Of a DNA stretch of 64,000 nucleotides, positions 6,219 to 21,554 are shown in pieces. The notes beneath the pieces are model-generated. The model saw nothing but the letters and a program-made list of their open reading frames with translations. It did no database searches and was not told the DNA's origin. A program made the position numbers and the translations under genes. The stretch spans positions 6,961 through 70,960 of the forward strand of contig CAYWEW010000007.1 in assembly GCA_964457775.1 (NCBI GenBank), read 5' to 3'. Origin of the DNA: an uncultured Candidatus Saccharibacteria bacterium (GTDB lineage Bacteria > Patescibacteriota > Minisyncoccia > Phycocordibacterales > UBA5272). Each line of letters begins with the position of its first letter. Position 1 is the first letter of the stretch.

Positions 6219-8720
6219 ATGAAGTTTTTTAAAGTTAGGAGTTATTTTAGTAGAATATCAGTATCTAAGTTTTTGTTATGTTTCTTCTTATTTATATTTT
6301 TTGGAGTCCTTATTTCTTTTTTTTATATAGTACTTACAACTCATAATAATCCAATCCCAGATAAAGCAGTTCAAGAAAAAATAAATAATCAAAAAAATAT
6401 TGTTTTAGATGCTTCAGAACTATACCCAGTTATTGTTAAAGGTATTATTGTTCCTCATACAACAGAAGAAATCGTAAAAGCTGTTAAGGAAAACGATTAT
6501 GTATCAATCGGTGGTGGACGAAACAGTATGGGAGGTCAAACAGCAAGTGAAAAAGCTATACAGATTGATATGAGAGAGCTTAATAAAATTATTTCTTTTT
6601 CAACAACTACGAAAGAAATAACGGTGCAGGCTGGTATTAGATGGAGAGATATTCAAGATTTTATTGATCCATATAATCTCTCAGTTAAAATAATGCAGAC
6701 ATATAGTAATTTTACTGTAGGTGGATCACTTTCTGTAAATGTTCACGGTAGATATATTGGGCTTGGGCCGATTATTTTAAGTGTAAAAGGTTTCACAATT
6801 GTGCTTGCTGATGGAAGTATTGTACATGCTACACCAGAAGAGAATTCAGATATTTTTTATAGTGCAATTGGTGGAATGGGAGGAATTGGTGTGATTACTG
6901 ACGTTACGCTCTCGCTTGCTGATAATGTTAATGTAGAAAGAAGTCCTGTACTTTTAACGACAGTAGAATATAAAGATTATTTTAAAAATAATGTTCGAAA
7001 TGACTCAAAAGTTATTTTTCATAATGGGGATATGTATCCGCCAGAATTCAAATATGTTCGTGCTGTAAGCTGGAAAGAAACAATAAAGGATCAGACAACA
7101 TATAATCGACTTATTCCACAAAGAAAAGATTATTGGAAAGAAAGAATTGCTTGGGTTGTGATGAGTGAATGGCCGAAAGGAAGATGGATTAGAGAATATA
7201 TTATTGACCCAATTCTTTATTTCGGTGATCAACCTGTTCATACGCGCAACTACGAAGCTAGCTATGATTTTGCTGAACTTGAGCCAGAGAGTAGAGATAA
7301 AAGTAGTTATGTTTTACAGGAATATTTTGTACCAGTGGAAAAATTTGATGAGTGGGTTCCCAAGATGAAGAAAGTTTTTAATGATAATAATGTAAATGTT
7401 ATCAATGTATCTATTCGTCACTCTCTCCCAGATAATGGGGCAAAGTTAGCTTGGGCAAGAACTGAGAGTTTTGCATTTGTTGTTTATTATAAACAAGGAA
7501 CAAGCGATAAAGAAAGAGCTAAGGTCTCTAATTGGACAAGAGAGATGATCGATCAAGTCATAAGTGTTGGTGGTACTTATTATTTACCCTATCAGCTTCA
7601 CGCGAGCGATGATCAGTTCCACTCATCATATCCGCAAGCAATAGAATATTTTGAAATAAAAAAACAATATGACCCAGCTGACAAGTTTACTAATAAATTG
7701 TGGGAAAAATATTATAGCGAGGATAAACTTAAATATTATAAGAATCGTAACTCAATTCTCCGCTTGGCTAGTACTACAAGTGAGTACTTTAGGCCGTACG
7801 ACAATGCGTGTCTCTCTATTCCTGAATGGTTTATTGTTTATAATTCACTAGAGTATTCACGAGCGCTTTCTAATTCAACCCCGTCTTCCTTTAAGTATTT
7901 CTCAGCAATAAAAGAATATTGGAAGGAGTATTCAAATGTGAATAGTCTTTTAGCTTCAAGTACTAACAATAATAGTGACTATGTAATGGTGTTAAGAGTT
8001 ATCGGGATTAGTTATTCTTTTGAACTTGCAGTCAAAGGCGTATATGAAAATACTTTAGGAAGATTAACTGAATGGCTAGCGCAAGGTAAACCTGTTTATG
8101 AAGAAAAAGTTGCAGCACAGATGAATAGTGATTATGGAGAATTTATATATGATTATCCATGGTATGACTTTCCTTACGGGTCATACTTTAAACCTCTTTG
8201 GTCAAGAAGTGATGATTCAAATTTAACGTTTGGGCAGTATATAAGAAAAATTGAACGACTTGTATTTATTTCTTTAGAGTTAGAAGTAAAAATTGCATAT
8301 TCAAAACTTATAGCATTTTTTACGCATCAGAAATTTGGAGTGCAGGATGATAATATTTATGCAATTATTTCTAGGGACGGAGGAAAGAATCTTGAGCTAT
8401 TTTCAGCACCACACTATCAACCATTTACTCGAGCTCTTTTATCTGAGATGAATGATGCTATTGTTTATGGAAATGATTTTCAGGTGCTGGATATTTCAGG
8501 GAATAAAAAAATAACGTTTAGTTTTCTGATACCAGAAGGTGATGCTTCATCAGATAAGATTATAGAATTATTTCGAACAAAAGAGGGTTATTTTAAAAAT
8601 GACATTAATTTAATTACAAAAGAAAGAGTTCATGCGGAAGTTGAGGTAATTAATATTTTTTCAGTTTATAAAAATCTAAGGGAACAACGACTCACAATCG
8701 ACCATTTTTATGATTATTAA
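6219..8720 (+). CDS. Membrane-anchored FAD-linked oxidase (PCMH-type FAD-binding domain) with a long uncharacterised C-terminal extension
   Basis: N-terminal TM helix. VSIGGGRNSMGGQ and GGSLSVNVHGRYIG motifs typical of the FAD_binding_4 / vanillyl-alcohol-oxidase superfamily. About 500 aa downstream have no recognised family. Confidence 0.65.
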   Translation: MKFFKVRSYFSRISVSKFLLCFFLFIFFGVLISFFYIVLTTHNNPIPDKAVQEKINNQKNIVLDASELYPVIVKGIIVPHTTEEIVKAVKENDYVSIGGGRNSMGGQTASEKAIQIDMRELNKIISFSTTTKEITVQAGIRWRDIQDFIDPYNLSVKIMQTYSNFTVGGSLSVNVHGRYIGLGPIILSVKGFTIVLADGSIVHATPEENSDIFYSAIGGMGGIGVITDVTLSLADNVNVERSPVLLTTVEYKDYFKNNVRNDSKVIFHNGDMYPPEFKYVRAVSWKETIKDQTTYNRLIPQRKDYWKERIAWVVMSEWPKGRWIREYIIDPILYFGDQPVHTRNYEASYDFAELEPESRDKSSYVLQEYFVPVEKFDEWVPKMKKVFNDNNVNVINVSIRHSLPDNGAKLAWARTESFAFVVYYKQGTSDKERAKVSNWTREMIDQVISVGGTYYLPYQLHASDDQFHSSYPQAIEYFEIKKQYDPADKFTNKLWEKYYSEDKLKYYKNRNSILRLASTTSEYFRPYDNACLSIPEWFIVYNSLEYSRALSNSTPSSFKYFSAIKEYWKEYSNVNSLLASSTNNNSDYVMVLRVIGISYSFELAVKGVYENTLGRLTEWLAQGKPVYEEKVAAQMNSDYGEFIYDYPWYDFPYGSYFKPLWSRSDDSNLTFGQYIRKIERLVFISLELEVKIAYSKLIAFFTHQKFGVQDDNIYAIISRDGGKNLELFSAPHYQPFTRALLSEMNDAIVYGNDFQVLDISGNKKITFSFLIPEGDASSDKIIELFRTKEGYFKNDINLITKERVHAEVEVINIFSVYKNLREQRLTIDHFYDY

Positions 8721-8756
8721 AAATTTAATTTATTAACAGTGTGTTATAATTATTTT

Positions 8757-9407
8757 ATGAGTAAAAAACTTCCTACAGCTTTAGTCGCCGTTGATATATG
8801 TATTTTTAAGATTATTGATAATCAGCTTTGTGTTTATGTTACTAAGGTTGATAATGATAATTATAAAAATATGAGATGTTTACCCGGGGGACTTATATAT
8901 TTAAATGAAAATGCAGATGAGACAGTTAAGAGAATTATTGAAGAAAAAACCTGCCTAGAGGATAATAAGGTTTATAGAGAACAACTCTGTTCTTTTTCTA
9001 AAGTAAATAGAGACAAGAGAAGTAGAGTGGTTTCAGTTGCATATCTTGCTATTTATTCTGGTAATAGTAATGAAGGTTTTTTTAATATTAATTCGATAGG
9101 CAAACTGGCTTATGATCATAATGAGATTTTGGAAAAAGCAGAACACAGAATTTCTTCTAAGCTTGAATATACAACTATTGTGAAGAAGTTTATGAAAAAT
9201 AAGTTTACTTATTCTGAATTACAGAAGGCGTATGAGGTTATACTAAGAAAAGAAATAGATAAAAGAAATTTTAGAAAAAAGATAGACAGTTTGGATATTT
9301 TAAAGGAGGCAGGAACAATGAGAAAAGAAGGGAGGATGAGACCAGCTCAAGAATACACTTTCAAATCTGAAAAGGTTCAGAATTTCAAACTCTTTGGAGA
9401 ATTTTAA
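8757..9407 (+). CDS. NrtR-like regulator: Nudix-like domain plus C-terminal winged-helix (Nudix-related transcriptional regulator of NAD metabolism)
   Basis: Nudix-box-like LPGGLIYLNENADETVKRIIEEKT (G-x5-E-x7-R-x-x-E-E). C-terminal FTYSELQKAYEVILRKEIDKRNFRKKI resembles the NrtR wHTH signature. It sits at the head of an NAD-salvage cluster with matching palindromic operators. Start chosen at the second ATG (MSKKL). Confidence 0.55.
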   Translation: MSKKLPTALVAVDICIFKIIDNQLCVYVTKVDNDNYKNMRCLPGGLIYLNENADETVKRIIEEKTCLEDNKVYREQLCSFSKVNRDKRSRVVSVAYLAIYSGNSNEGFFNINSIGKLAYDHNEILEKAEHRISSKLEYTTIVKKFMKNKFTYSELQKAYEVILRKEIDKRNFRKKIDSLDILKEAGTMRKEGRMRPAQEYTFKSEKVQNFKLFGEF

Positions 9408-9532
9408 ATATAGCAGTTACGATTTGCGATTAAGGTGGTAATATTTCTAGTATTTGTAGTGCGAGTTATTTATTAAAATTGTGCATTTTTTGTTTGTTAT
9501 TAAATAATTTTAAAGTATTAATAATATACTAT

Positions 9533-9553
9533 TTAGTGTTCACTTGACACTAA
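9533..9553. promoter_or_regulatory. 21-bp palindrome TTAGTGT-TCACTTG-ACACTAA (candidate NrtR operator 1) overlapping the -35 box
   Basis: Perfect inverted repeat read from the sequence. It overlaps the TTGACA at 9544-9549. Confidence 0.5.
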
Positions 9554-9572
9554 AATGTGATAGGTGTACAAT
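9544..9572 (+). promoter_or_regulatory. Sigma70-like promoter TTGACA-17-TACAAT upstream of the island's first gene
   Basis: Canonical hexamers with 17-nt spacing. Flanked by two identical-arm palindromes. Confidence 0.5.
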
Positions 9573-9584
9573 AAGATTAGATAA

Positions 9585-9605
9585 TTAGTGTATAGTTAAC
9601 ACTAA
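9585..9605. promoter_or_regulatory. 21-bp palindrome TTAGTGT-ATAGTTA-ACACTAA (candidate NrtR operator 2) downstream of the predicted start site
   Basis: Perfect inverted repeat with the same arms as operator 1. Centres are 52 bp apart. Confidence 0.5.
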
Positions 9606-9704
9606 TTAAGGGAATGTCATTTTGACACATTAGGCAGATTGTGGTAGTGTCATTCCTAATGATTGTTGTTTGACAATTAGGTTTAATTCGAAAAGGAGTA
9701 TTCC

Positions 9705-10529
9705 ATGAATACTGTTTCTGTAAGTGGTAAGTGTGATTATCTTGTAGGGAAACCTCTTGGTGGGAATAGTCGGTTCAATTTGTATCGGGCGTCCTCAAAT
9801 GCTTATCCTGATCAAGACTTCATACTCAAGATTGCAAAAACAACTGCGCAAAATCCACTTTTGGAGCGTGAGGCTTTTATTTTTTCGATTATGAATGATG
9901 AAGCTAAACGTCTTGAAGAAGAATATGCGCGGGTTACTGAAGGAAAAGGGTTTCTTAATTATCAGGTTGGTTTCCCTGTTTTGGTCGAAACATTTTTGGC
10001 TGACTCACAGGATAATCGACGGGTTATTGTTGCATCTCTTAGCTCAGAAAATATTAGCAATTTTGTTTCTCTTTCTATGGTGCGTGAACGTGATCGTGTT
10101 CGTGTTGATCCAAAAACAAGTGCCTGGATAATGGGAAAACTTCTCAAGATTCTTGCATTTTGTCACAACCAAAAAATCATAAACAAAAATATTTCTTGTG
10201 GTAATGTTCTCATAGAACGAGGTAATCATCTAGTTACTGTATACGATTGGTCAACTGCTTCAATTCACAACGAAGGTATTCCTCAGGCAGATTCACGAGA
10301 AGAAATAAAGTGCGCTACGCGTGAAGTGGTTCGTGTTTTGGGTGGTAATATCGTTTCGGGAGAAATCCCTGATGATAAACAACTCGTAGATGGTAAGTAT
10401 CAAGAATTTCTCATCAAGCTACTTAGTGGTTCTTATAGCAATGCAAAGGAAGCCCATTCGCGTTTTTACGAAGTTGTAGAAGCAGTCTGGGGCAGAAAGT
10501 TTCACCCGTACGCCTCTTACCCACTGTAA
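9705..10529 (+). CDS. Atypical protein-kinase-like (RIO/Kdo-kinase-like) protein, possibly a pseudokinase
   Basis: FILKIAK (VAIK-like beta3 Lys), LEREAF (alphaC Glu), NKNISCGNVLI (parallels RIO HGDLSEYNILV but with the catalytic Asp replaced by Asn), VTVYDWSTAS (DFG-like). GC about 40%, above the genome background. Confidence 0.5.
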   Translation: MNTVSVSGKCDYLVGKPLGGNSRFNLYRASSNAYPDQDFILKIAKTTAQNPLLEREAFIFSIMNDEAKRLEEEYARVTEGKGFLNYQVGFPVLVETFLADSQDNRRVIVASLSSENISNFVSLSMVRERDRVRVDPKTSAWIMGKLLKILAFCHNQKIINKNISCGNVLIERGNHLVTVYDWSTASIHNEGIPQADSREEIKCATREVVRVLGGNIVSGEIPDDKQLVDGKYQEFLIKLLSGSYSNAKEAHSRFYEVVEAVWGRKFHPYASYPL

Positions 10530-10540
10530 AGGAGAAGGAA

Positions 10541-11650
10541 ATGGAAAAGCGACGCTTTACCAGGGAAACATTCGCTGGTGTCAGGGAAAAAGTCTCTGCT
10601 GCTGGCGGAGATACGTCTTTTGCTGGTCGTCAGCATATCAAGAAAACCAACAAGCTTCACCCGCTTGTTGACCCTGCCGGCTATGGACTTGTTCGCAGGT
10701 CTTTGCCACGGTACTCAGAGTTGGCTGATGGACGGTTACTGTTGCCGAACGGCATTCCGATGCTTGACGAAACATTGTTCGACACGACTGGTTCGATGGG
10801 GCACAATGTTGCCCTTGCGTTTGAGTCATTGCCGACGATGTATGACCTTTTGACTGTGGGTGATTGTCCGGTTTTTGGCCGGTACGACCCGCAGATCATC
10901 AATGCCATCTTCGGCGATGTTGTGGATGACTACATCTGTGCTCGCTCACAAGCGGAAATGGATGAAAAAATCCCTGAACAGCTAACGCTGATGGTTCCAG
11001 AAAACGCTGGTGGTGATAATCCGGAAGATCCGGAATACGGCCTGTTTGGTGCGGCATTCCTCACGGATGCTTTTATCAACAGGTACGGCCTGAAAAGCTA
11101 TCATTCACTGGTTACCGATGCGACCAGTCATGGCCGTATCGACAAACCCAACCTGATTCGTGTGTTCGGTGATACGGTGTTCGATGTGGTTAAGGAAAAT
11201 GGTCATAGCATTACTGCGAAAGACCTACCTACCACAAAGGAAATCGTTGACGAACTAAAGAAGCGTACACACGCTTTCATGGTTCAGGTCGGTGATGAGG
11301 CTTATGTTGGAAGGTACTGGTCCGAAATTTACGGAGTTGATCACCTCGTCGTTATTGAATCGACGAAGTATCTTCCGTTCGTTAAGGCAGCCATTATCGG
11401 TCTAACTGAAGGCATCTTCGATTTGCAGTTTGTGCCTCAGTACCTTGAGTCGGTCGGTTGTGCGAAGAGTGCAGCAAAAAGCATTCAACGCGCAGTTGCC
11501 GGTATTCCTCTCGGTGCACAAGTGATGCTTCCCAACTTCGGTAAGATTCCGAATAGGGGAAGTGTGTTCGCAAAGAAACAGGACCTCTGGCCCATTGCGG
11601 ACGGTGCCACTGTTGACGAGGAAGAAACTGACGACGTTAAGTGGCTGTAA
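10541..11650 (+). CDS. von Willebrand factor A (vWA) domain protein, TerY-like
   Basis: MIDAS motif LFDTTGSMG parallels the D-x-S-G-S-M of TerY-type vWA domains. GC about 50%. Confidence 0.65.
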   Translation: MEKRRFTRETFAGVREKVSAAGGDTSFAGRQHIKKTNKLHPLVDPAGYGLVRRSLPRYSELADGRLLLPNGIPMLDETLFDTTGSMGHNVALAFESLPTMYDLLTVGDCPVFGRYDPQIINAIFGDVVDDYICARSQAEMDEKIPEQLTLMVPENAGGDNPEDPEYGLFGAAFLTDAFINRYGLKSYHSLVTDATSHGRIDKPNLIRVFGDTVFDVVKENGHSITAKDLPTTKEIVDELKKRTHAFMVQVGDEAYVGRYWSEIYGVDHLVVIESTKYLPFVKAAIIGLTEGIFDLQFVPQYLESVGCAKSAAKSIQRAVAGIPLGAQVMLPNFGKIPNRGSVFAKKQDLWPIADGATVDEEETDDVKWL

Positions 11651-11666
11651 TTTACGCCACATCAAG

Positions 11667-11704
11667 TGTTGGTGGGGTCATGGTTAAAATGGCCCCACCA
11701 ACAT
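11667..11704 (+). other. Strong intergenic hairpin (11-bp GC-rich stem) between the vWA and PurA-like genes, no T-tract
   Basis: tgttggtgggg-(15-nt loop)-ccccaccaaca. Confidence 0.5.
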
Positions 11705-11731
11705 TAACATTAACCAAAAGGGAGGTGAAGA

Positions 11732-13123
11732 ATGGCTATCAAAAAAGCATATACTGTCACTGACCTTGGTGGTGGTGATGGAGGTAAGGGTGGTGTTATA
11801 CACAAGTTGTGTGCACTTCGTCGCCCTCATACAGTTATCAAAGTTGGTGGAGCACAAGGTAGTCATGGTGTTTTTACTTCACATGGTGAAAGATTCAATT
11901 TCAGTCAGTTTGGATGTGGGACATTCAATGGATCAAGGACATTTATATCTAATCGATTTGTTGTCTCACCCGTGGGATTACTTAATGAAGCACATGCGCT
12001 TCGATATGAATTAGGTGTACACGATCCGATGTCACTTCTAACGGTGGATGGTAATGCTCTCTGCACAACCCCATACCACGGGATAGCGTCTCGTCTTAAA
12101 GAACTCGCAAGAAAAGAAAATCCACGAGGAATTGTGGGTGTCGGGGTTGGTGAGGCGTTTATAGATGCCAAACAATTTCCTGAGCTTGCGTTTCGTGCGG
12201 CGGATCTTGGTCGTAAAGACATGAGATCTCGTCTTGCTCAGGTTCGAGCACAGAAGCTAGAAGAAGTTGCTAACGTGTTTGCATCTGGCTTTATGGCGGG
12301 GGATATAGAAGAAGCCAAAGAACAGCTTGATTTAATTCGTAATGATGATTTTCTTGATTGGGCCGCAGAACAATTCGAAGAATTTGCTAAACGTGTTAAG
12401 GTTGTCGATGAAGATTTTATTCGTCGGGAAATTTTTTCACGTGATGGTATTATTGTTTTGGAAAGTTCACACGGCGTTCTCACTGACAGGTATTATGGTT
12501 TTGGCCCTCATACATCACGCTTTCGTACATTGCCCGAAATTACTTCTTGGAGCTTGCTCCGTGATTATGATTATGGTGGTGATATTGTTAAGTTTGGTGT
12601 GACTCGTGCTTATCAAATTAGGCATGGGGCAGGACCACTTGTAACTGAAGACACAGAAATGGCAAATGATTTGCTTCCACATGAAGTGGGCGCAGTCGAC
12701 CGCTATCGTGGAAAGGTTCGTGTTGGTCCACTAGATACAGTTTCTCTTCGTTATGCAATTAATGTTTGTGGAGGTAGTAATGCTTTTGATGCAATTGCTG
12801 TAACGTGGTTTGATAGTGTAATTAGAAAGGGTGAATGGAAGGTTTGTAATCGTTATTATGACGCAACGGACCCGCTATTCTTTAACCAATCTGGGGACAT
12901 TATTGTACGTAGAGGGGATGACGATGTTCAGTTAAGGCGACAAGAAAGTTTAACTAAGGTGCTTAAGTCTTGTCGTCCAAGTGTTACAACGTTTCAATTA
13001 TCAAATGGTACTTCGCAAGAAAAGGCGATTAAACTGTGCAGCGACGTGCTAGCTGAGAGGCTTGGTACACCTGTGCGGATGATATCGTTTGGTCCAACAG
13101 AAGCAGATAAAGTTTGCTTCTAG
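11732..13123 (+). CDS. Adenylosuccinate synthetase (PurA) family protein, divergent paralogue
   Basis: Colinear with PurA. GDGGKGG parallels the P-loop GDEGKGK. VGGAQGSHGV parallels GGHNAGHT. The C-terminal ISFGPTEADKV parallels ISTGPDRTETM. The IMP-binding GTTGRRRR element is altered (VDRYRGKVRVG), as is GTTGRGIGP (NPRGIVGVGVG). Strong AAGGGAGGTG ribosome-binding site. GC about 47%. Confidence 0.8.
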   Translation: MAIKKAYTVTDLGGGDGGKGGVIHKLCALRRPHTVIKVGGAQGSHGVFTSHGERFNFSQFGCGTFNGSRTFISNRFVVSPVGLLNEAHALRYELGVHDPMSLLTVDGNALCTTPYHGIASRLKELARKENPRGIVGVGVGEAFIDAKQFPELAFRAADLGRKDMRSRLAQVRAQKLEEVANVFASGFMAGDIEEAKEQLDLIRNDDFLDWAAEQFEEFAKRVKVVDEDFIRREIFSRDGIIVLESSHGVLTDRYYGFGPHTSRFRTLPEITSWSLLRDYDYGGDIVKFGVTRAYQIRHGAGPLVTEDTEMANDLLPHEVGAVDRYRGKVRVGPLDTVSLRYAINVCGGSNAFDAIAVTWFDSVIRKGEWKVCNRYYDATDPLFFNQSGDIIVRRGDDDVQLRRQESLTKVLKSCRPSVTTFQLSNGTSQEKAIKLCSDVLAERLGTPVRMISFGPTEADKVCF

Positions 13124-13173
13124 TTCTAAGCCGCGAGGAATTTTCTCGCATCAACCAACATTAGGAGAAAAGC

Positions 13174-14301
13174 ATGAACGATATACTGAAGGCCCGTTTG
13201 ATTGAGCTCGGACTCGGTGAAGACCAGGTTGCGAAGCTTGAAGCGGAAGGTGTCAAGGAAGAAGCCGATCTGCAGCTTCTCAATCGGGATGAATTGAAAT
13301 CACTCACCGGTTGCGGACTTGTGGCGGCGGCGAAGATTGCGGCGGCATTTACTGCTACTGTCGTAGCCACTCCGGCCGAGTCTGCGGTTCCGCCGATGGG
13401 GGCAGCAACGTTTGACATCCTCCCCCCGGTTCCGAGTGATGAAGCCTGGATGAATGCTCTCAAGGTTGGCGGCGTGCTCAAGTTCAATTCGAGTACTGTC
13501 ATCGGCACGGTGAGTGCAGCCCTAGCTGCCAAGGTGGGTCTTTACGAACTGCCGGGCAAGATCGGGGTGGCCATGGAAAGGCAGGCGGAGTCGCTCGAAG
13601 AACCTGTCGGTGAGGATTATTACCAGATGCAAAACCTCCTCACCCGTCGTAGCTATGCGGACATCTTTGCAGCAATGCCAGGTGTTGACGGCCGGTTCGC
13701 GACTCAGACGCGCAAGGATGTACTGCTTCGTCGTTTGAATGAGCGGTTGTGGGGCTCATTGAGCTCCTATCAACAACAGCTCAAGCAGTGGGTCGAGGCG
13801 TGGCAACAAGGGATGTCCAACCCTGCGGCCATGATGAGTGTGTTTACTGCAATGGCTGGTGGGGTCGGCGCTGTTCCTCCGGGAATGATGCAACCGCCCC
13901 CGATTGACGTTTTGCGGGATGCTGCTGACGGTGTTGTGAACGACATCAACTACGTGTTTGCCGGAACTGGCATTCCCGTTGCGATGGCGCTTGCATACGA
14001 CGCTCAGCAAATCCGCAAAGTTCTCGAAAACCCGTCGCTTCCTGCGCAAGTCGGAGCAGCGAATCGGGAACAAATGCTGCGCATGCTTGGTGCAGCGGTA
14101 TCGTCGGACTATCCGCGTCTCGAAAAAAACCTGAAGCAGTTTGCGCTCGGCATCATCGAGTTTCAAAATGTGACTTCAGGGCAAGCAGAGCTTCAATATG
14201 TCGTCGCGCTTTATCAGCTTGGTTCCATGATTCCGTGGGACAAGCTTGATACCAGCGACGGCGGTCATTCCGGCCTTGGTCGGGGAGGTAAGAAGCTCTA
14301 A
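13174..14301 (+). CDS. Hypothetical Ala/Gly/Pro-rich protein with an N-terminal SAP/HeH (Rho-N-like) motif
   Basis: ILKARLIELGLGEDQVAKLEAEGVKEEADLQLLNRDELKSL resembles HeH/SAP DNA- or RNA-binding motifs. The rest is low-complexity (MQPPPIDVL, AMAGGVGAVPPG). GC about 57%, the most atypical in the window. Confidence 0.45.
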   Translation: MNDILKARLIELGLGEDQVAKLEAEGVKEEADLQLLNRDELKSLTGCGLVAAAKIAAAFTATVVATPAESAVPPMGAATFDILPPVPSDEAWMNALKVGGVLKFNSSTVIGTVSAALAAKVGLYELPGKIGVAMERQAESLEEPVGEDYYQMQNLLTRRSYADIFAAMPGVDGRFATQTRKDVLLRRLNERLWGSLSSYQQQLKQWVEAWQQGMSNPAAMMSVFTAMAGGVGAVPPGMMQPPPIDVLRDAADGVVNDINYVFAGTGIPVAMALAYDAQQIRKVLENPSLPAQVGAANREQMLRMLGAAVSSDYPRLEKNLKQFALGIIEFQNVTSGQAELQYVVALYQLGSMIPWDKLDTSDGGHSGLGRGGKKL

Positions 14302-14341
14302 TCAGTTCTTTCTGTTTGTAATGTTGCTAATTTTGCAACAA

Positions 14342-14368
14342 AGGCGATCTTCGGATCGCCTTTTTTTA
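14342..14368. terminator. Bidirectional rho-independent terminator with a UUCG tetraloop, shared by the convergent 13174..14301 and 14384..16399 genes
   Basis: aggcgatc-ttcg-gatcgcct followed by ttttttt. Confidence 0.7.
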
Positions 14369-14383
14369 TACATAAGTTATTTT

Positions 14384-16431: not shown

Positions 16432-16469
16432 TTGCATTAAAAAACTATATAGTGTATAATATACACTAT
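16432..16469. promoter_or_regulatory. pncA promoter TTGCAT-17-TATAAT with the 21-bp palindrome ATAGTGTATA-A-TATACACTAT (candidate NrtR operator 3) overlapping the -10
   Basis: Perfect palindrome at 16449..16469 with the same TAGTGT-N7-ACACTA core as operators 1 and 2. Confidence 0.5.
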
Positions 16470-16537
16470 TAAGGTAGATTACCTTGGTAAGGAAGTTCTT
16501 TGTAATAAAATCATTCAACAAACAAGGAGAAGTTATC

Positions 16538-17194
16538 ATGAAAAACAAATGGAAAATCGGTGAAAATGGTAACAAGGATGCACTGGTAATCATTGATGCA
16601 GAAGTCGATTTTGTGAATCCTGGTGGCAAACTTTATGTGTCCGGGGTAGATGGTGAATCAAGTGGAGATGATGTTGTTTTCGGTATAATCGAACTCAACA
16701 AACAGCCGTTCGATTATCGAGTCACCTCAGAAGATGAACATCCTCCTGGCCATATTGAGTTTGATATTTTTCCTCCACATTGTGAAAAAGGAAAAGTTGG
16801 TCAAGAATACGTAGCGGTCCTTGACCCCGTGTATGAAAGCAGTGATGAAAATCTCGTCAAAGGTGATGATGTTAGCATTATTGCCTACTCTATTGCAACG
16901 AGTAAGGAATTCGCCAATCACATTGGCCGTCTTCGTGCAAAGGGCATCAAGCGAATTTTCGTTACTGGCTGGGCATATACCCACTGTGTAGGAGAATCTG
17001 CAATTGCATACGCATCTCAAGGTTTCGAAACCTTTGTTGTGCGTGACCTTACTCGCAGTGTTGCTCCTCCTTACGGAGATCCTGAAGTCATGAAACAAAA
17101 ACTCGCACTTTATGGTGTCAAAGAAGTTTATATGGCAGATATGGAAAGTGCTGACTCATTTCTTTCTGTGGCCATAAGCAGCCCTTGTCCGTGA
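16538..17194 (+). CDS. pncA: Nicotinamidase / isochorismatase-family hydrolase (PncA-like)
   Basis: ALVIIDAEVDF (the ALLLVDxQNDF region of PncA). The Cys FVTGWAYTHCV parallels the catalytic GLATDYCV. AAGGAG ribosome-binding site before the ATG at 16538. Confidence 0.7.
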   Translation: MKNKWKIGENGNKDALVIIDAEVDFVNPGGKLYVSGVDGESSGDDVVFGIIELNKQPFDYRVTSEDEHPPGHIEFDIFPPHCEKGKVGQEYVAVLDPVYESSDENLVKGDDVSIIAYSIATSKEFANHIGRLRAKGIKRIFVTGWAYTHCVGESAIAYASQGFETFVVRDLTRSVAPPYGDPEVMKQKLALYGVKEVYMADMESADSFLSVAISSPCP

Positions 17195-17287: not shown

Positions 17288-19150
17288 ATGAAAAAAATTT
17301 ATACTAACAATTTAAAAATATCAGTTGCGCAAATGAGTCCAACACCAATGAATGTTGTGGCTAATTTGTCAGCAATTAAAGACTATATAAATAAAGCTAA
17401 AAATACTGGTTCACAAGTAGTTGTCTTTCCTGAGCTTTGTGTTTCTGGATATGTACTTGGTGATAGATTTGAGTACAGCGATTTTATAAATGAATTACAA
17501 GAAGCAAATGATACTATTCGTGAAATGAGTGAAGGTATTGTTGTTGTATGGGGGAACATTGTAAGTGACACTACTAAGATTGGTGAAGACGGACGCATTA
17601 GAAAATATAATGCTGTACTTATTGCGTACAATGGAAAGTGGGTAAGTAACGGTGTACTTCTAGGATTTTTACCAAAGAATAATCTTCCTAAATATCGTAT
17701 CTTTGATGATTCAAGACACTTTTATCCTGCATATAAATTAGTCAAAGAAATGAATTTAGAGTTGAACGATTTTTTTAAAGCTTTTGAAATAAATATTGAT
17801 GGTGTAATTTACAAAATAGCTTTGGCTATTTGTGAAGATATGTGGGAGGATGAATATTCAATAAAATTATCTAAGATATATCAAAAACAAAATATTGATT
17901 TGCTTGTCGACGTATCTGCCTCACCTTGGACACTGGGTAAGTGGCACGCACGTGAGAATATGCTTGTGAAAAGGGTTAAAGATTTGAATGCGCCAATGCT
18001 ATATGTTAATTGTGTTGGGCTACAAAATAATGGCAAGAATTTAATCTGGTTTGATGGAGCTTCTGTATTCGTTAAGGAGGATGGAGAATTTGTTTTTCGT
18101 GCAGAGAATAATATAAATAATTTGTATTCTTTTTCTGTTGCTGATTTAAAAGCAAATAATTCTTATAAACAAAAAAGTGAAGTAGAAGAACTTTATTCCA
18201 ATATCACAAGTGCAATGTATGAGTTCTATAAAGATTTTAATAAAGTAGTTGTTGGATTGTCAGGTGGCATAGATTCAGCACTTACACTTGCTTTACTTTG
18301 TGCTGTTTTACCAAAAGAAAAAATTCTTACAGTTAATATGCCAACTAGATTTAATTCTTCCACTACTAAAGATTTGGCTAAGAAATGTGCAGAGAATTTT
18401 GGTGTTGAGTATAAAGTAGTAGCAATTGATGAATTATTCGAAGCACAATGTAAAGTACTTTTGGATTCAGGTTTATCATCACTTAATACTTTAGTAAAAG
18501 AGAATATTCAAGCTCGTCTTCGTTTACAACAACTCGCAACTATTTCGGCATCTTATGGTGGGGTGTTTACCAACAATGGAAACAAGACAGAGGTATCCCT
18601 TAATTACTTTACACTTTATGGAGATGCAGGCGGATCATCAGCATTTCTTGGAGATCTTTGGAAAGGACAAGTGTATGAATTATCTAAATATATTAATTTA
18701 ATTAATAACAAAGAACTTATTCCAGAAGGAATTATAAATATTATTCCAAGTGCTGAACTTTCAGAAAATCAAAATGTAGACGAAGGGAAAGGGGATCCAA
18801 TCTTTTATGAATATCACGACAAATTACTTTTGGCTTTTGTTGAATCTCGTATAGGTATTACGGATATTCTTGTGAAATATGAGGCAGGCACCCTTGAAAA
18901 ATATTTGAAGTGTGAAGAAGGTACAATCGCAAAATATTTTAAGACAACAGCTGAATTCATTAATAATCTAGAATGGGCATGGAATGCATACAACACAGAA
19001 TATAAACGAGTACAGTTACCACCAGTATTTCTAGCATCTCGCAGAGCTTTTGGTTTTGACAGAAGAGACACTATCGCACCAGCTTTTTTCTCCCAAGAAT
19101 ATGTAACACTAAAAGAAAAACTCCTTACTTCATCTGATACTGCTACATAA
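17288..19150 (+). CDS. nadE: Glutamine-dependent NAD+ synthetase (N-terminal CN-hydrolase/nitrilase domain plus C-terminal NadE domain)
   Basis: PP-loop VVVGLSGGIDSA and an N-terminal carbon-nitrogen hydrolase fold. 620 aa. Confidence 0.9.
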   Translation: MKKIYTNNLKISVAQMSPTPMNVVANLSAIKDYINKAKNTGSQVVVFPELCVSGYVLGDRFEYSDFINELQEANDTIREMSEGIVVVWGNIVSDTTKIGEDGRIRKYNAVLIAYNGKWVSNGVLLGFLPKNNLPKYRIFDDSRHFYPAYKLVKEMNLELNDFFKAFEINIDGVIYKIALAICEDMWEDEYSIKLSKIYQKQNIDLLVDVSASPWTLGKWHARENMLVKRVKDLNAPMLYVNCVGLQNNGKNLIWFDGASVFVKEDGEFVFRAENNINNLYSFSVADLKANNSYKQKSEVEELYSNITSAMYEFYKDFNKVVVGLSGGIDSALTLALLCAVLPKEKILTVNMPTRFNSSTTKDLAKKCAENFGVEYKVVAIDELFEAQCKVLLDSGLSSLNTLVKENIQARLRLQQLATISASYGGVFTNNGNKTEVSLNYFTLYGDAGGSSAFLGDLWKGQVYELSKYINLINNKELIPEGIINIIPSAELSENQNVDEGKGDPIFYEYHDKLLLAFVESRIGITDILVKYEAGTLEKYLKCEEGTIAKYFKTTAEFINNLEWAWNAYNTEYKRVQLPPVFLASRRAFGFDRRDTIAPAFFSQEYVTLKEKLLTSSDTAT

Positions 19151-19212: not shown

Positions 19213-20523
19213 ATGAACCCGAAACTTCGTGAGCTTATTGAAGAAACGATTAGGATTGTTCGCAGTAAGGAATTTGTTCCGCCTGTTCAAAATGTAACAG
19301 ATATTGATGTTTACAAATTATTCATGATGCAATTTATCAGGCATTATTACCCAGATGTTGAAGCAACTTTCAAGTTGACCGTAAGAGATAAAGCGATAAG
19401 ACTTTGGAAGTATGTTGACCAAGATGAGCTTCGTCAATCTTTTGACCACATGAGGTCACTTTCGCTACGAAAGACTGACCGATATTATCTTCGTGGCATG
19501 GATCTCTACGACAAGTACATGTTTAGCGAAGATTTTCTTTCTTCTTTCGGAAGTTTTCATCTTCCGGAGTACAAGATTGACCACAAAGATGGGATTATGG
19601 ATGTTCAATTTCCTGGTCTGTGGTCAGAGAGCTCTCTTTGGGAAACTGGCGGAATGGCTGTTATTTCTGAGTTGTACTATCGCGGATTTTTGAAGGAGCT
19701 TACTGATGATCAAATACGTGACCTCTATATAGTTGCGGATAACAGACTTCAGAATGATCTACTTCGAATCAAAAAGAATCCTTGGGTTCGATTTGCTGAT
19801 TTCGGACATCGTCGTCGTCATAGTTTTCTTTGGCAGAAGTATGTCATTGGTGAAACCAAACGTGTTCTCGGTGATCAGTTCATCGGTACCTCGGATGTCT
19901 GGATGGCTTTTCATTATGACTTGAACGTGATTGGTACGAATGCTCATGAATTGCCAATGGTAGTAACGGCAATTGCTAAGAGCGATGAGGAAATGCGTCA
20001 AGCTCAATACCAAGTTCTTTGGCAGTGGCAAGAGATGTACGGCAAGGGTCTACGCATCATTCTTCCTGACACTTATGGGTCTGAGCAGTTTTTTGCAAAT
20101 GCACCTAAGTGGTTATTGGAGTGGCGTGGTCAAAGGCAGGATTCTGGAGACCCTATTACTGAAATTGATAGGTACAAGGATTGGCTCATTTCTAATGGGG
20201 TTAATCCCAATGAAAGAATCTCTCTCCCTTCCGATGGTCTTGATGTTTCGTCGATGATTTCAATCGCGTCGCATTATGAAGGTAAGCATGTAACTGGTTT
20301 TGGTTACGGTACGGGCCTCACCAATAACTTCAATGGCATTCTACCTGGGAATGAAGATTTTCGGTCATTCTCAATGGTGATAAAAGCCTATTTGGCAAAT
20401 GGTAATCCTTGCGTGAAGTTGCCAAACGATATCAATAAGGCAACAGGGGAAGCTTCTGCAAAAGAGCGCTATCTCAGAGTCTTTGGTCGACAGCATCGAG
20501 TCGAAAGAGAAGTGTTTGTTTGA
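19213..20523 (+). CDS. pncB: Nicotinate phosphoribosyltransferase (PncB family)
   Basis: DVYKLFMMQ, FADFGHRRRHS (the FxDFGTRRR motif), IGTSDV and GTNAHE motifs of the type II PRTase NAPRTase family. Confidence 0.8.
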   Translation: MNPKLRELIEETIRIVRSKEFVPPVQNVTDIDVYKLFMMQFIRHYYPDVEATFKLTVRDKAIRLWKYVDQDELRQSFDHMRSLSLRKTDRYYLRGMDLYDKYMFSEDFLSSFGSFHLPEYKIDHKDGIMDVQFPGLWSESSLWETGGMAVISELYYRGFLKELTDDQIRDLYIVADNRLQNDLLRIKKNPWVRFADFGHRRRHSFLWQKYVIGETKRVLGDQFIGTSDVWMAFHYDLNVIGTNAHELPMVVTAIAKSDEEMRQAQYQVLWQWQEMYGKGLRIILPDTYGSEQFFANAPKWLLEWRGQRQDSGDPITEIDRYKDWLISNGVNPNERISLPSDGLDVSSMISIASHYEGKHVTGFGYGTGLTNNFNGILPGNEDFRSFSMVIKAYLANGNPCVKLPNDINKATGEASAKERYLRVFGRQHRVEREVFV

Positions 20524-20588: not shown

Positions 20589-20628
20589 TTGCATTATATT
20601 TTATATAGTGTATAATGAACACTATATA
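20589..20628. promoter_or_regulatory. nadM promoter TTGCAT-16-TATAAT with the palindrome TATATAGTGT-ATAATGA-ACACTATATA (candidate NrtR operator 4) overlapping the -10
   Basis: Same TAGTGT-N7-ACACTA core and the same TTGCAT -35 as the pncA promoter. Confidence 0.5.
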
Positions 20629-20639
20629 ATTAATAAACT

Positions 20640-21554
20640 ATGAAAATAATCAAAAATATCAATCAATCAAAACAAAAGACCGTCGGAGTTGTAATCGGTA
20701 GATTTCAGCTTGCTAATTTGCACGAAGGTCACAAACACTTAATTGATACAGTTAAATCAAAGAATGATGAGATTTGTATTTTGCTTGGTTCATCAGGCGG
20801 GGCACCAACTAAGAGGAATCCACTTCCTTTTTCCATAAGAAAAGAAATGATTCAGGATTTATATAAAGATGCTAAGGTTTTTGAAATAGTTGATTCCAAA
20901 AATAAGTGGTCAGAGAATGTCGATAAAATTCTGAAGAAGAATTTTAAGAATAAAAATATTCGATTATACGGATCTAGAGATTCATTTTCCAAGTGGTACT
21001 TCGGAGAATTTCCTTTTGTCTATGTAAAAGAGATGCACGATATATCTGGAACAGAAATTAGAAATAGTAATATTTTACCAAAAGAAAAAGAAAGTTTTCG
21101 TCTCGGTATGATTGAAAGTCACAAGGTTAGATATCCTATTTCTTATCAAACAGCTGATATTGTTTTATTTGATGAAAAGAAAAGCAAAATTGTTTTAGGC
21201 CAAAAGGAGGATGTAAAAACTTGGTTCTTTCCTGGGGGCTTCGTTGATCCAAGTGATCTTTCTTTAGAAGATTCTGCAAAAAGAGAGTTAAGTGAAGAAG
21301 TGGTAAATATTGAAACAAAAGACGATGTTAAATATTTGGGCTCAATTAGAGTGAACGACCACAGATATAGAAATGAGGAAGACAAGATTATGACAAGTCT
21401 TTTTCTTATTAAATATAAAAGCGGAAAGATAAAAGCAGGAGATGATTTAAAAAGAGTAAAATGGTTTTCTTTAAAAGAGGCCAAGGAAGTCATTTCTGAC
21501 ACTCATACACCATTATTAAATATGTTATTAGAAAAGTACAGTAATGTATTATAA
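20640..21554 (+). CDS. nadM: Bifunctional NMN adenylyltransferase (NadM-type) / Nudix ADP-ribose pyrophosphatase
   Basis: N-terminal GRFQLANLHEGH (the HxGH nucleotidyltransferase motif). C-terminal Nudix box FPGGFVDPSDLSLEDSAKRELSEEV. Confidence 0.8.
   Translation: MKIIKNINQSKQKTVGVVIGRFQLANLHEGHKHLIDTVKSKNDEICILLGSSGGAPTKRNPLPFSIRKEMIQDLYKDAKVFEIVDSKNKWSENVDKILKKNFKNKNIRLYGSRDSFSKWYFGEFPFVYVKEMHDISGTEIRNSNILPKEKESFRLGMIESHKVRYPISYQTADIVLFDEKKSKIVLGQKEDVKTWFFPGGFVDPSDLSLEDSAKRELSEEVVNIETKDDVKYLGSIRVNDHRYRNEEDKIMTSLFLIKYKSGKIKAGDDLKRVKWFSLKEAKEVISDTHTPLLNMLLEKYSNVL

Follow-up and report, generated by a model that had tools for sequence, protein, structure and literature searches.

Three proteins, a kinase-like protein, a vWA-domain protein and a protein similar to adenylosuccinate synthetase (PurA), have homologues that stand together in Bixzunavirus mycobacteriophages. 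In phage I3, these homologues are gp270, gp271 and gp273, and a polynucleotide kinase adjoins the triad. Phage records that contain both the vWA and the PurA-like gene come from Mycobacterium (about 202), Rhizobium (10) and Vibrio (6), a 224-kb phage-like contig also bears the triad, and each of the three core proteins has a match among the PHROG families. In PurA from E. coli, the IMP 5'-phosphate is contacted by residues N38, T129 and R143, the base by Q224, and aspartate by T300, T301 and R303. Here, we analysed a window of 64,000 nucleotides from a Patescibacteria chromosome, in which the triad is accompanied by a SAM/HhH-domain protein and by a nucleotidyltransferase. As a preliminary description of this DNA had stated, the cluster matches none that is known: we found neither a matching cluster nor a published function in the literature, and PADLOC gave only weak generic kinase matches. 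We are highly confident that these five proteins represent a module that Patescibacteria carry on the chromosome and maintain vertically, with one operon that belongs to the NrtR NAD regulon. With a probability of about 45%, the module as a whole would be an ADP-ribose-induced, GTP-driven nucleotide-ligase complex, regulated by NrtR and involved in NAD/adenylate homeostasis.

The four co-directional genes (9705-14301), which are all on the forward strand and tightly spaced, form one operon (Table 1). These ORFs, a rise in GC, a promoter and palindromes had been described before and are all present where they had been placed, while the convergent nucleotidyltransferase gene, the fifth member of the module, had been overlooked. 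The promoter, reported earlier as TTGACA-17-TACAAT, agrees with the consensus at 11 of 12 positions and is the top match in segment 9380-16520. The leader contains the motif GTTTGACAAT, with a near-copy, TTGACACATTAGG, at about 9622-9634. No -10 box follows GTTTGACAAT, the leader has no match in Rfam, and RNAalifold gives no consensus structure for the leaders of the kinase-like genes. A PWM score of at least 12 for this motif is found in 36% of 75 kinase-like-gene leaders and in 2.2% of 778 control upstream regions, a partly circular comparison because the matrix was seeded from the same leaders. The hairpin AAAGGCGATCTTCGGATCGCCTTT, with a 10-bp stem that includes 5 G-C pairs and with A and T runs on its flanks, is predicted to act as a bidirectional terminator. 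The names nadE and pncB come from reading the translations and from the preliminary description, not from family-library matches.

Table 1 Features of the module and of its surroundings, numbered from the first nucleotide of the window.
Feature	Position	Strand	Basis or remark
NrtR-like regulator gene	8739-9407	+	degenerate Nudix + NrtR winged-helix domain; Pfam, NCBIfam
Operator 1 (predicted)	9533-9553		exact palindrome TTAGTGT-N7-ACACTAA; overlaps -35 box
Sigma-70-type promoter	9544-9572	+	TTGACA (9544-9549), 17-nt spacer, TACAAT (9567-9572)
Operator 2 (predicted)	9585-9605		exact TTAGTGT-N7-ACACTAA; just 3' of -10 box, early transcribed region
Leader motif GTTTGACAAT	9668-9677	+	family consensus YYTTRACAAY; 35 nt 5' of kinase-like ATG
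Kinase-fold gene (gene 1)	9705-10529	+	ORF list
vWA-domain gene, intact MIDAS (gene 2)	10541-11650	+	ORF list
PurA-family (adenylosuccinate-synthetase-like) ligase gene (gene 3)	11732-13123	+	PF00709
SAM/(HhH)2-like protein gene (gene 4)	13174-14301	+	ORF list
Putative hairpin terminator AAAGGCGATCTTCGGATCGCCTTT, then T-run	14340-14363		between convergent genes
Pol-beta-superfamily nucleotidyltransferase gene, 671 aa	14384-16399	-	convergent to the four + genes
Operator 3 (predicted)	16449-16469, core 16450-16468		exact TAGTGT-N7-ACACTA; between divergent nucleotidyltransferase gene and pncA
pncA-like isochorismatase gene	16484-17194	+	Isochorismatase Pfam match
nadE-like gene	17288-19150	+	translation read: nitrilase-like N-terminal part, then NAD-synthase-like part
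pncB-like gene	19213-20523	+	translation read: nicotinate-phosphoribosyltransferase-like
Operator 4 (predicted)	20605-20625, core 20606-20624		exact TAGTGT-N7-ACACTA; upstream of nadM-Nudix
Bifunctional NMN-adenylyltransferase/Nudix gene (nadM)	20640-21554	+	CTP_transf_like + NUDIX
NAD kinase gene	21544-22266	+	NAD_kinase_C

The profile of the kinase-like family matches CK2-alpha (E=1e-7) and phrog_3043, annotated as 'kinase' (E=6e-12). The kinase-like fold and the Asn that replaces the catalytic-loop Asp had been recognised before and are confirmed, whereas the label 'RIO-like' does not hold, the best matches being to ePK/CK2. A Gly-rich loop is absent from the kinase-fold protein. At the VAIK position, 24 of 48 family members have Gln and 18 have Lys, and the position of the HRD Asp, which is N162 in the window, is variable across the family. 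The catalytic-loop Asn (40/48) and the DFG-like Asp (39/48) are kept. Lacking both the catalytic Asp and the conserved Lys, this protein is probably a pseudokinase. The analogy with TerY-P modules that had been drawn from the kinase and vWA pair fails: the present module has no PP2C phosphatase, its kinase is without the catalytic Asp, and half of the family is without the VAIK Lys.

The third protein belongs to the PurA family (PF00709, E=7e-34) but scores 80 bits against the TIGR00184 equivalog, the cut-off of which is 395 bits. It keeps the equivalents of E. coli D13, K16, H41, R305 and D333, which include the P-loop Asp and Lys, the catalytic His and the guanine-specifying Asp. In contrast, N38 is replaced by Gln, T129 by Val, Q224 by His, V273 by His, R303 by Lys and K331 by Trp, while R143, T300 and T301 are lost. 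The divergence and the remodelled IMP-binding elements noted in the preliminary description are therefore confirmed, and the aspartate site is remodelled as well. Judged from these residues, the protein is a PurA-family ligase and not a canonical PurA; it has kept the GTP and catalytic residues and lost the IMP-phosphate and aspartate sites. It could still be the working adenylosuccinate synthetase of the organism, a deeply divergent PurA that converts salvaged IMP to AMP for ATP and NAD synthesis, with the other proteins acting as regulators. Patescibacteria rely on nucleotide salvage, the family and the kept catalytic and guanine-specifying residues are those of PurA, the public annotation is adenylosuccinate synthetase, and co-regulation with ATP-consuming NAD synthesis would make sense. 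We nevertheless regard this as unlikely, given the low equivalog score, the replacement of residues that contact the IMP phosphate, the base and aspartate, and a module without purB. Furthermore, we know of no need of canonical PurA for vWA, pseudokinase or nucleotidyltransferase partners, and of no fusion of it to a nucleotidyltransferase.

Such a fusion exists for the PurA-like protein. Proteins P0385 and P0422 combine it with the nucleotidyltransferase (hhalign E=1.4e-83), and the locus that encodes P0385 (L088) has the gene order kinase-like, vWA, fusion. As a separate gene, the nucleotidyltransferase (about 650 aa) is convergent and adjacent to the module in about 75 loci. Its homologues match Polbeta in 34 and NTP_transf_2 in 24 of 41 cases, and the GS...D.D motif (G483, S484, D495 and D497) is invariant. 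Protein 4 comprises an N-terminal domain, an Ala/Pro linker and an all-alpha domain of about 290 residues (type 'p4a') for which no known fold was matched. The N-terminal domain is SAM/(HhH)2-like, rather than the HeH motif proposed earlier. The gene has two unrelated forms, a close relative (L001) having the other one, and it is missing in several loci; protein 4 is an exchangeable SAM/HhH-domain member of the module. These features could also be read as those of a nucleic-acid-directed machine, in which the PurA-like protein would turn a 6-oxopurine (G or I) in RNA or DNA into an N6-substituted base while the nucleotidyltransferase and the HhH-type domain handle the polymer. The N-terminal domain of protein 4 does resemble the DNA-binding N-terminal domain of Rad51, RNAP alpha-CTD and (HhH)2 folds, a poly(A)-polymerase-type palm profile matches 11 of the 41 nucleotidyltransferases, and a polynucleotide kinase lies beside the triad of phage I3. 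RNA bases are known to be modified by oxo-activation and subsequent amination, as in TiaS. However, the fold of protein 4 is also that of a SAM protein-protein interaction domain, several loci do without this protein, base modification has no tie to control by NrtR and ADP-ribose, and nuclease, methylase or polymerase partners are not conserved near the module loci. We consider this reading quite improbable.

A genome scan identified 80 Patescibacteria loci, among them loci from Paceibacteria, Saccharimonadia, Daviesbacteria, Uhrbacteria and Falkowbacteria. The order of the five genes is constant in nearly all of the approximately 80 loci, with unrelated flanks. The PurA-like gene has orthologous synteny in relatives, and the preliminary description's possibility that the four genes never co-occur elsewhere is false, since almost every locus has them together. 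The copy in Patescibacteria has the behaviour of a core operon that is kept by vertical inheritance.

The GC content in 1-kb windows over 10-14 kb is 0.45, 0.47, 0.43 and 0.55, while in the rest of the 64 kb it is about 0.30-0.40; the shift is local and not common to the whole contig. A climb from about 40% to about 57% had been described; the rise is real but not steady (0.40, 0.50, 0.43 and 0.56 for genes 1 to 4). Only genes 2 (0.51) and 4 (0.59) are outliers in GC3 (window median 0.25, sd 0.085), and genes 1 (0.28) and 3 (0.27) are at background level. The block had been interpreted as a GC-rich foreign island, recently acquired, partly ameliorated and inserted between nrtR and the NAD genes. 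The local excess in GC and GC3 is genuine, high-GC phages and one phage-like contig of 68% GC contain homologues, the SAM gene has its two unrelated forms, and the vWA and SAM gene distances are less congruent (r = 0.24-0.57) than those of the kinase-like, PurA-like and nucleotidyltransferase genes (r = 0.67-0.73). However, in 91-98% of the 68 loci compared, and at any host GC, the four forward genes exceed their flanks in GC, so that the excess belongs to the genes themselves; the nucleotidyltransferase gene, with background GC, does not share it. Ranked by GC3 within each locus, the SAM gene is one of the first four ORFs in 85% of loci, compared with 75% for the vWA gene. High GC3, most pronounced in these two genes, is a conserved feature of the genes rather than a mark of recent import. 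Moreover, the kinase-like and PurA-like genes, at background GC3, co-vary with the nucleotidyltransferase gene, the phage homologues are only about 35% identical to the Patescibacteria proteins, and a Patescibacteria-type gene occurs in only 2 of 2.9 million viral contigs. Insertion into the NAD cluster is likewise at odds with the same block, in identical gene order, being kept amid variable flanks. As an account of the entire module, a foreign island is for the most part refuted, and we give it very little credence. The weaker congruence of the vWA and SAM genes, together with a dimorphic or missing SAM gene, makes some lateral exchange inside the phylum likely.

The regulator encoded upstream of the operon matches Pfam NrtR_WHD (E=2.3e-20) and NUDIX (E=1e-3), as well as the NCBIfam model of the ADPR-responsive repressor (E=8e-31) with 107 bits, under the 400-bit cut-off of that model. 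The recurrence of the palindrome at pncA and nadM, reported earlier, holds for the exact core TAGTGT-N7-ACACTA, and in several other loci, too, TTGACA is embedded in the right half-site of the operator. Among 75 loci, 19 have an operator with at most one mismatch in the 400 nt that precede the kinase-like gene, which is 32 times the density elsewhere (binomial p = 7e-22); 12 of these 19 loci have no nrtR nearby. For 19 of 78 loci, an nrtR homologue is encoded no more than 10 kb from the module. Nearly all operator sites (48 of 50, in 1.4 Mb) are intergenic, and those that do not lie upstream of the kinase-like gene precede nrtR, nadE, nadD-like, pncA, nadM-Nudix, ADP-ribosylglycohydrolase, PRPP synthetase and NadB genes, the nadE homologues bearing theirs in other loci. 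Since the operator is missing or unrecognisable at this threshold in about 75% of the 75 loci, control by NrtR is common but not universal; none was found in the true host-associated Saccharimonadia loci L078-L085, nor in the more distant L088 and L090-L092. The NrtR-type control proposed from the single window is strengthened by these comparative data, which support the module as a predicted conserved member of the NrtR (ADP-ribose-responsive) NAD regulon in Patescibacteria.

In the nucleotide-ligase model that we favour, NrtR would leave its operators when NAD is consumed and ADP-ribose rises, and the operon would then be expressed along with pncA, nadE, pncB, nadM and nadK. The PurA-like subunit would use GTP to phosphorylate an oxo group on a nucleotide-type acceptor and would exchange the activated group for an amine other than free aspartate. 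Because these steps are read from residues, we infer them only tentatively, and the specific chemistry is doubtful; the contacts to the IMP 5'-phosphate are missing, as is the GTTTGR aspartate loop. The nucleotidyltransferase may carry out a coupled nucleotidyl transfer to the same substrate or to the enzyme. The vWA-MIDAS protein and the pseudokinase would be obligatory non-catalytic partners in assembly or substrate presentation, and the SAM-domain protein would serve as an adaptor that can be swapped. Overall, the module would sustain or restore an adenine-nucleotide/NAD-related pool, and large phages would carry the triad for the same chemistry in infection.

A role in nucleotide-derived signalling, defence or counter-defence had been suggested in the preliminary description, and the phage homologues also allow the module to be described as a conflict system. 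The phage versions would then be counter-defences that replenish the nucleotide or NAD pools targeted by NADase, deaminase or depletion defences, and the Patescibacteria version would be a domesticated or defensive form triggered by ADP-ribose. About 200 large lytic phages and the 224-kb contig have the triad, ADP-ribose, the ligand of NrtR, is a product of NAD-depleting defences, ADP-ribosylglycohydrolase genes adjoin the module in several loci, and the fourth gene varies like a cassette. Phages are also established to possess NAD-reconstitution pathways (10.1101/2024.02.11.579819; PMC13464706). However, the NARP papers make no mention of the module genes, no integrase or defence gene is consistently near the module loci, and the PADLOC matches were weak and generic. 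Phylum-wide conservation, with 37-94% identity of the PurA-like protein among Patescibacteria, and fixed synteny are also unlike defence islands. For the module in general this account seems improbable to us; for the phage-borne triad, a role in host takeover or counter-defence may apply. In Rhizobium phage RHph_Y65, the only signs of an NAD neighbourhood are a ComF-like PRTase and a weak Nudix match. The position of E. coli Q224 is Gln in the phage versions and His in Patescibacteria, and the substrates of the two groups may differ.

The kinase-like, vWA, PurA-like and fourth genes form one co-directional block that faces a convergent gene for a 671-residue Pol-beta nucleotidyltransferase. 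The block (9705-14301), its promoter and the twin palindromes beside it (9533-9605), as well as further copies of the palindrome core near pncA and nadM, were noted in the preliminary description, and all of them are present. The remaining part of the window is ordinary chromosome, with genes for ClpB, SOD, LeuRS, UvrA, ribonucleotide reductase, RNase J, DnaE, FolD, pyrE/pyrF and NAD kinase.

Table. Features of the module and of its control region in the window.
Feature	Position	Strand	Remark
Gene 1, kinase fold	9705-10529	+	ORF
Gene 2, vWA	10541-11650	+	ORF
Gene 3, PurA family	11732-13123	+	ORF
Gene 4, SAM/HhH protein	13174-14301	+	ORF
NrtR-like regulator	8739-9407		Nudix and winged-helix; adjacent to module
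Promoter	TTGACA 9544-9549, 17 nt, TACAAT 9567-9572		Best sigma-70-like match in region
Operators, exact TTAGTGT-N7-ACACTAA	9533-9553; 9585-9605		First copy lies over -35 box
Operator core, exact copy	16450		Between divergent nucleotidyltransferase and pncA genes
Operator core, exact copy	20606		Upstream of bifunctional nadM-Nudix gene
Strong hairpin terminator	14340-14363		Separates gene 4 from convergent 671-aa gene

Homologues of the PurA-like protein, with identities of 52-94%, come from organisms named Patescibacteria, Paceibacterota, Nomurabacteria and similar. Three context look-ups, together with a scan restricted to one genome per species, gave 80 further loci from Paceibacteria, Saccharimonadia, Microgenomates-type and ABY1-type lineages. 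At almost all of these loci, tblastn and ORF clustering recovered the same order: kinase-like, vWA, PurA-like, protein 4 and the convergent nucleotidyltransferase of about 650 residues. The flanks vary among loci and include S15/PNPase, ATP synthase and NAD genes. The pairwise distance matrices of the kinase-like, PurA-like and nucleotidyltransferase genes correlate with r = 0.67-0.73, which is consistent with co-inheritance; the distances are less congruent for the vWA gene (r = 0.40-0.57) and for protein 4 (r = 0.24-0.43). The five genes thus constitute a conserved multi-gene module. Outside Patescibacteria, some PurA-like copies stand alone, for example in an Anaerolineales MAG (L089), where the gene adjoins that of a response regulator, with a TIR/NB-ARC/TPR gene close by. 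A 671-residue neighbour of this Anaerolineales homologue was compared with the nucleotidyltransferase family, with a negative outcome.

The four genes had been read as a foreign island whose GC content climbs along the block. A local rise exists: in 1-kb steps, GC reaches 0.43-0.55 between 10 and 14 kb, with values of about 0.30-0.40 over the remainder of the 64 kb. The climb is not steady, since genes 1 to 4 have GC contents of 0.40, 0.50, 0.43 and 0.56. Only genes 2 (0.51) and 4 (0.59) are outliers in GC3, for which the window has a median of 0.25 and a standard deviation of 0.085, while genes 1 and 3 (0.28 and 0.27) lie near the median. Among 68 loci, the four genes exceed their flanks in GC in 91-98% of cases, by means of 5, 9, 6.5 and 12 points, respectively; the nucleotidyltransferase gene has no such excess. 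Protein 4 is among the top four ORFs of its own locus in GC3 in 85% of loci, and the vWA gene in 75%. Because the excess is present in most of the 68 loci, with the GC3 ranking likewise, it is a conserved property of these particular genes. The foreign, GC-rich origin, which the local rise had suggested, is therefore largely refuted: the same gene order stands between differing flanks across Patescibacteria, and the orthologues share the excess. Local GC excess alone is a poor sign of foreign origin, and here it is a trait of particular genes. Both selection on codon use and recurrent exchange among lineages are possible explanations for the upkeep of the GC3 excess. Across the phylum, the median z of GC3 is 1.9 for the vWA gene and 2.5 for the SAM-domain gene, with the neighbouring nucleotidyltransferase gene at background (68 loci). 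High GC3 also creates long spurious antisense ORFs, such as 13161-13532 (-) and 13756-14166 (-) in the window.

A gene for an NrtR-family regulator adjoins the block in the window and has a homologue in 19 of 78 loci, where NrtR is the only recurrent non-core gene family near the module. The palindromic operator lies at the promoter, is common to NAD genes and is conserved in relatives. With at most one mismatch allowed, 50 operator sites were found in 1.4 Mb of loci, 48 of them intergenic. About half are upstream of the kinase-like gene, and the others precede nrtR, nadE, a nadD-like gene, pncA, nadM-Nudix and genes for ADP-ribosylglycohydrolase, histidine phosphatase, PRPP synthetase and NadB. 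The 400 nt upstream of the kinase-like gene contain an operator in 19 of 75 loci, at 32 times the density found elsewhere (p = 7e-22); 12 of these 19 are without nrtR within reach. When two mismatches are allowed, the number of loci with an operator at this place rises to about 35. No recognisable operator was found in the host-associated Saccharimonadia loci. Given this frequency, the 32-fold enrichment and the recurrence of NrtR, the operon is a frequent and conserved target of an NrtR-type operator, as predicted by comparative genomics, and the NrtR-type control proposed in the preliminary description finds far more support here than a single window could give. ADP-ribosylglycohydrolase genes with the same operator stand beside the module at L038:5844-6950, L055:6682-7722, L073:12735-13793 and L075:5942-6937; operators are also found at histidine-phosphatase genes (L043, L073), a PRPP synthetase gene (L035) and NadB (L039).

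The NrtR regulons described so far are known to comprise genes of NAD synthesis or salvage and some genes of pentose use. The module resembles them in the adjacent Nudix and winged-helix regulator, in its promoter-overlapping 21-bp palindromes, whose core is GT-N7-AC, and in sharing its operator with nrtR, pncA, nadE, nadM-Nudix, prs and nadB, so that comparative genomics places it within such a regulon. It differs in that the kinase-like/vWA/PurA-like operon is the commonest operator target among the loci examined, and no such target was found in the literature searched.

The leaders of the kinase-like gene also carry a motif, YYTTRACAAY, located 25-110 nt upstream of the ATG (loci L001-L085). 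In the window it occupies 9668-9677, with a near-copy at about 9622-9634. Its form is CTTTGACAAY in loci of Paceibacteria type and CRTTAACAACyrGG in those of Saccharimonadia type, and it is above threshold in 36% of leaders vs 2% of control upstream regions. No -10 box was found downstream of the motif, nor any conserved RNA structure. A riboswitch in the 5' leader was considered and rejected; the sole Rfam match, to an miRNA family, is spurious and arises from the palindromes, and RNAalifold on 15 leaders found no structure, leaving a sequence motif only.

The product of gene 1 belongs to a family whose profile matches CK2-alpha (E=1e-7). Column counts over 48 sequences show that the family has no Gly-rich loop, that the VAIK position is Gln in half of its members and that the HRD-Asp position is variable, while most members retain the catalytic-loop Asn and the DFG-like Asp. 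The Asn that had been reported in place of the catalytic-loop Asp is found in the window protein and falls at this variable position. The Gly loop, VAIK Lys and HRD Asp of a competent Ser/Thr kinase are therefore not maintained, and the protein is probably a pseudokinase. The vWA protein has a Rossmann-like vWA fold and an invariant MIDAS composed of D81-x-T83-x-S85, T175 and D193, the latter two residues placed by position and not by structure inspection. It has no match to any vWA or TerY model of Pfam. A MIDAS-type vWA gene beside a gene of protein-kinase fold recalls the TerY-P triad, which consists of the vWA protein TerY, a PP2C phosphatase and a Ser/Thr kinase. However, no PP2C phosphatase is encoded in the window or among the conserved neighbours of the module, the kinase of the module lacks the catalytic Asp and the Gly-rich loop, and its vWA protein lacks the TerY match.

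The product of gene 3 matches PF00709 with E=7e-34 and shares the fold and the family of the adenylosuccinate synthetase PurA (EC 6.3.4.4) and of PurZ. One may ask whether it is a divergent but ordinary PurA. The residues D16, K19, H45 and D361, which correspond to D13, K16, H41 and D333 of E. coli PurA, are invariant in 25 homologues, and R305 is kept as well in the alignment to the E. coli protein. With the Asp and Lys of the P-loop, the catalytic His and the guanine-binding Asp all in place, the expected chemistry would be activation of an oxo group by means of GTP and then attack by an amine. In the same alignment N38 is replaced by Q, T129 by V, Q224 by H, V273 by H, R303 by K and K331 by W, R143 is lost and T300/T301 are lost (Y/R). 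The residues N38, T129, R143', Q224, T300/T301 and R303, which we take to be the contacts of E. coli PurA to the phosphate and base of IMP and to aspartate, are thus not conserved. The curated purA models give only 80.3 bits (TIGR00184, cut-off 395) and 77.9 bits (PRK01117, cut-off 402). Because the catalytic residues are kept and the contacts are changed, GTP-driven phosphoryl chemistry is plausible but IMP and aspartate are an unlikely pair of substrates, and we regard an ordinary PurA as an improbable identity for the protein. Metabolic reconstructions of CPR bacteria that count this gene as purA are probably wrong.

A role in nucleic-acid base modification seems more doubtful still. For PurZ, the phage paralogue of PurA in the 2-aminoadenine pathway, the model amino_Aden_PurZ (NCBIfam, cut-off 300 bits) gives 15.9 bits (E=0.006), and the PurZ partners MazZ, DatZ and DpoZ are not part of the conserved module. 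The PurA-like protein differs from PurA and PurZ also in that vWA and kinase-like partners always accompany it, and in that it is in some cases joined to the nucleotidyltransferase as a fusion. A profile search over 1.84 billion representatives returned 1946 clusters at E<=1e-30, two of which are proteins of 1102 and 1129 residues with a PurA-like N-terminal half. In the longer one (P0385), an alignment to the nucleotidyltransferase family covers the C-terminal 607 columns (E=1.4e-83), and in locus L088 the order is kinase-like, vWA and a PurA-like::nucleotidyltransferase fusion. These fusions support a functional coupling of the putative ligase and the nucleotidyltransferase. Another such fusion, L091:40-3096, lies just 3' of a terminase-like gene and a serine recombinase gene, and may ride on, or sit beside, a prophage. 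In P0402 (700 aa), a PurA-like protein is fused to an unassigned C-terminal domain of 230 residues; a comparison of this extension with the kinase-like domain was negative, and it has no Pfam match.

The 671-residue product of the fifth gene has the hG[GS]...[DE]h[DE]h motif and matches the palm profile, with G483, S484, D495 and D497 invariant (GS...D.D). Polbeta is detected in 34 of 41 members of the family, which also matches HI0073 and GLD2. Protein 4 begins with about 60 residues that are SAM/(HhH)2-like, in place of the HeH motif proposed for it in the preliminary description. An Ala/Pro linker follows, and then an all-helical C-terminal domain of about 290 residues, which is modelled with confidence and has no match in the PDB or in a viral model library. 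A second type of fourth gene is present in at least nine loci, the close relative L001 among them; it has only 66 N-terminal residues (53% identity, hhalign 98.9%) and a short C-terminal tail in common with the first. These loci are L001 (9440-10459), L005, L015, L017, L033, L039, L055, L061 and L077. The fourth gene can be described as a cassette, in which two unrelated C-terminal domains are carried on a common SAM/HhH-like N-terminus and end in a similar '...G(I/L)G(R)...acidic...L' tail. At least five loci (L025, L027, L031, L053 and L076) have no gene between the PurA-like and nucleotidyltransferase genes. The tail of both types of protein 4, '...GIGR...acidic...L', is reminiscent of encapsulin cargo-loading peptides; a function as an encapsulin-type cargo tail was dropped, the module having no HK97-fold shell gene.

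PHROG has matching families for all three core proteins, namely 3043 ('kinase'), 2971 (unknown function) and 1211. Against PHROG 1211 the PurA-like protein of the window scores 157 bits, above its Pfam PurA score. By tblastn, the PurA-like and vWA genes occur together in phage records of Mycobacterium (about 202; Bixzunavirus, cluster C1), Rhizobium (10) and Vibrio (6). In mycobacteriophage I3, gene 1 has a homologue in gp270 ('kinase') and gene 2 in gp271 (hhalign 99.2% and 97.8%, respectively); next come gp272 and the PurA-like gp273. The latter has about 37% identity to the PurA-like protein of the phage-like contig L090 (tblastn), and the same triad is carried by a phage-like contig of 224 kb and 68% GC. 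The order of the homologous triad is the same in cluster C1 and in Patescibacteria, while I3 has the extra small gp272, no annotated nucleotidyltransferase or SAM gene beside the triad and no NrtR. The phage PurA-like proteins have lost the aspartate loop and show the Val to His change as in Patescibacteria, but they keep Gln at the position of E. coli Q224. In the Rhizobium phage RHph_Y65, genes for a ComF-like PRTase, a Nudix protein and a HAD hydrolase are located at a distance of 3-4 kb from the vWA/PurA-like pair, which recalls the nucleotide/NAD context only faintly; the kinase-like gene was not found among the two neighbours tested of the Rhizobium phage pair. Broad phage carriage of the Patescibacteria-type gene was rejected, with 2 contigs among the 2.9 million viral contigs of IMG/VR. 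The phage records carry homology-based labels only: in cluster C1 the triad is annotated as 'kinase', 'hypothetical protein' and 'PurA-like adenylosuccinate synthetase'. The last is the GenBank name; RefSeq and PHROG name the gene '2-aminooxy adenylosuccinate synthetase' (e.g. NC_067270.1 gene 273), a label for which no supporting paper or experimental basis was found in the literature searched.

The module might serve in conflict or counter-defence. PADLOC found no defence-system match for the vWA, PurA-like and SAM proteins, and only weak kinase-domain matches for the kinase-like protein (PD-T4-6, E>=2e-4); we hold a function of this kind to be unlikely. The phage NAD reconstitution pathways NARP1, NARP2 and NARP3 likewise respond to the breakdown of NAD into ADP-ribose and nicotinamide, and it is to this end that phages carry NAD-pool genes (10.1101/2024.02.11.579819; PMC13464706). 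The triad module and NARP are alike in logic only, the NARP enzymes (PRPS-like Adps, Namat, Nampt, Nmnat, PnuC and NadR) being of other families. PurA-like genes are absent from the NARP1/2 (10.1101/2024.02.11.579819) and NARP3 (PMC13464706) papers, and vWA genes from the NARP3 paper. No description or function of the module was found in the literature searched, which included a Tn-seq paper on Patescibacteria, a preprint on NARP1/2 and the NARP3 paper. By the computational comparisons made here, the module does not group with canonical PurA, PurZ, TerY-P or any PADLOC system, and it has the properties of an NrtR regulon member.

In our interpretation, the operon would be induced upon ADP-ribose, and the PurA-like ligase would carry out a GTP-driven ligation on a nucleotide-type acceptor, with substrates other than IMP and aspartate. 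The vWA and pseudokinase proteins could provide a scaffold and the SAM protein an adaptor. A bolder reading, to which we assign a probability of about 0.2, is that the triad and the nucleotidyltransferase may form an undescribed enzymatic machine that rebuilds or converts an adenine-nucleotide or NAD-related metabolite on an ADP-ribose cue, with a PurA-type ligase whose substrate is other than IMP and aspartate. Such a machine would be a further route of NAD or adenylate pool restoration, used by large phages against depletion-type immunity and fixed in Patescibacteria as an ADP-ribose-inducible core function. Much of bacterial diversity falls within the Patescibacteria, in which the majority of conserved genes lack an assigned role. 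The five-gene module, retained throughout this phylum, offers two clear handles, the NrtR/ADP-ribose regulation and a predicted GTP-dependent ligase of PurA type with an altered substrate pocket. About 200 sequenced mycobacteriophages able to grow on M. smegmatis carry the triad core, which opens an experimental route.

Three other genes of the window deserve mention. Directly 5' of nrtR, 6219-8720 (+) encodes a protein of 833 residues that combines an FAD_binding_4 domain with a weak match to ALO (lactone oxidase) and begins with a segment resembling a signal or transmembrane sequence. The 186-residue product of 23711-24271 (+) has a full-length match to the flagellar master regulator FlhC (E=1.5e-57), which is unexpected for a reduced Patescibacteria genome. 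The leucyl-tRNA synthetase encoded by 32937-35789 (+) contains a NUDIX domain at residues 388-502, just past the editing domain (Pfam E=4e-14).
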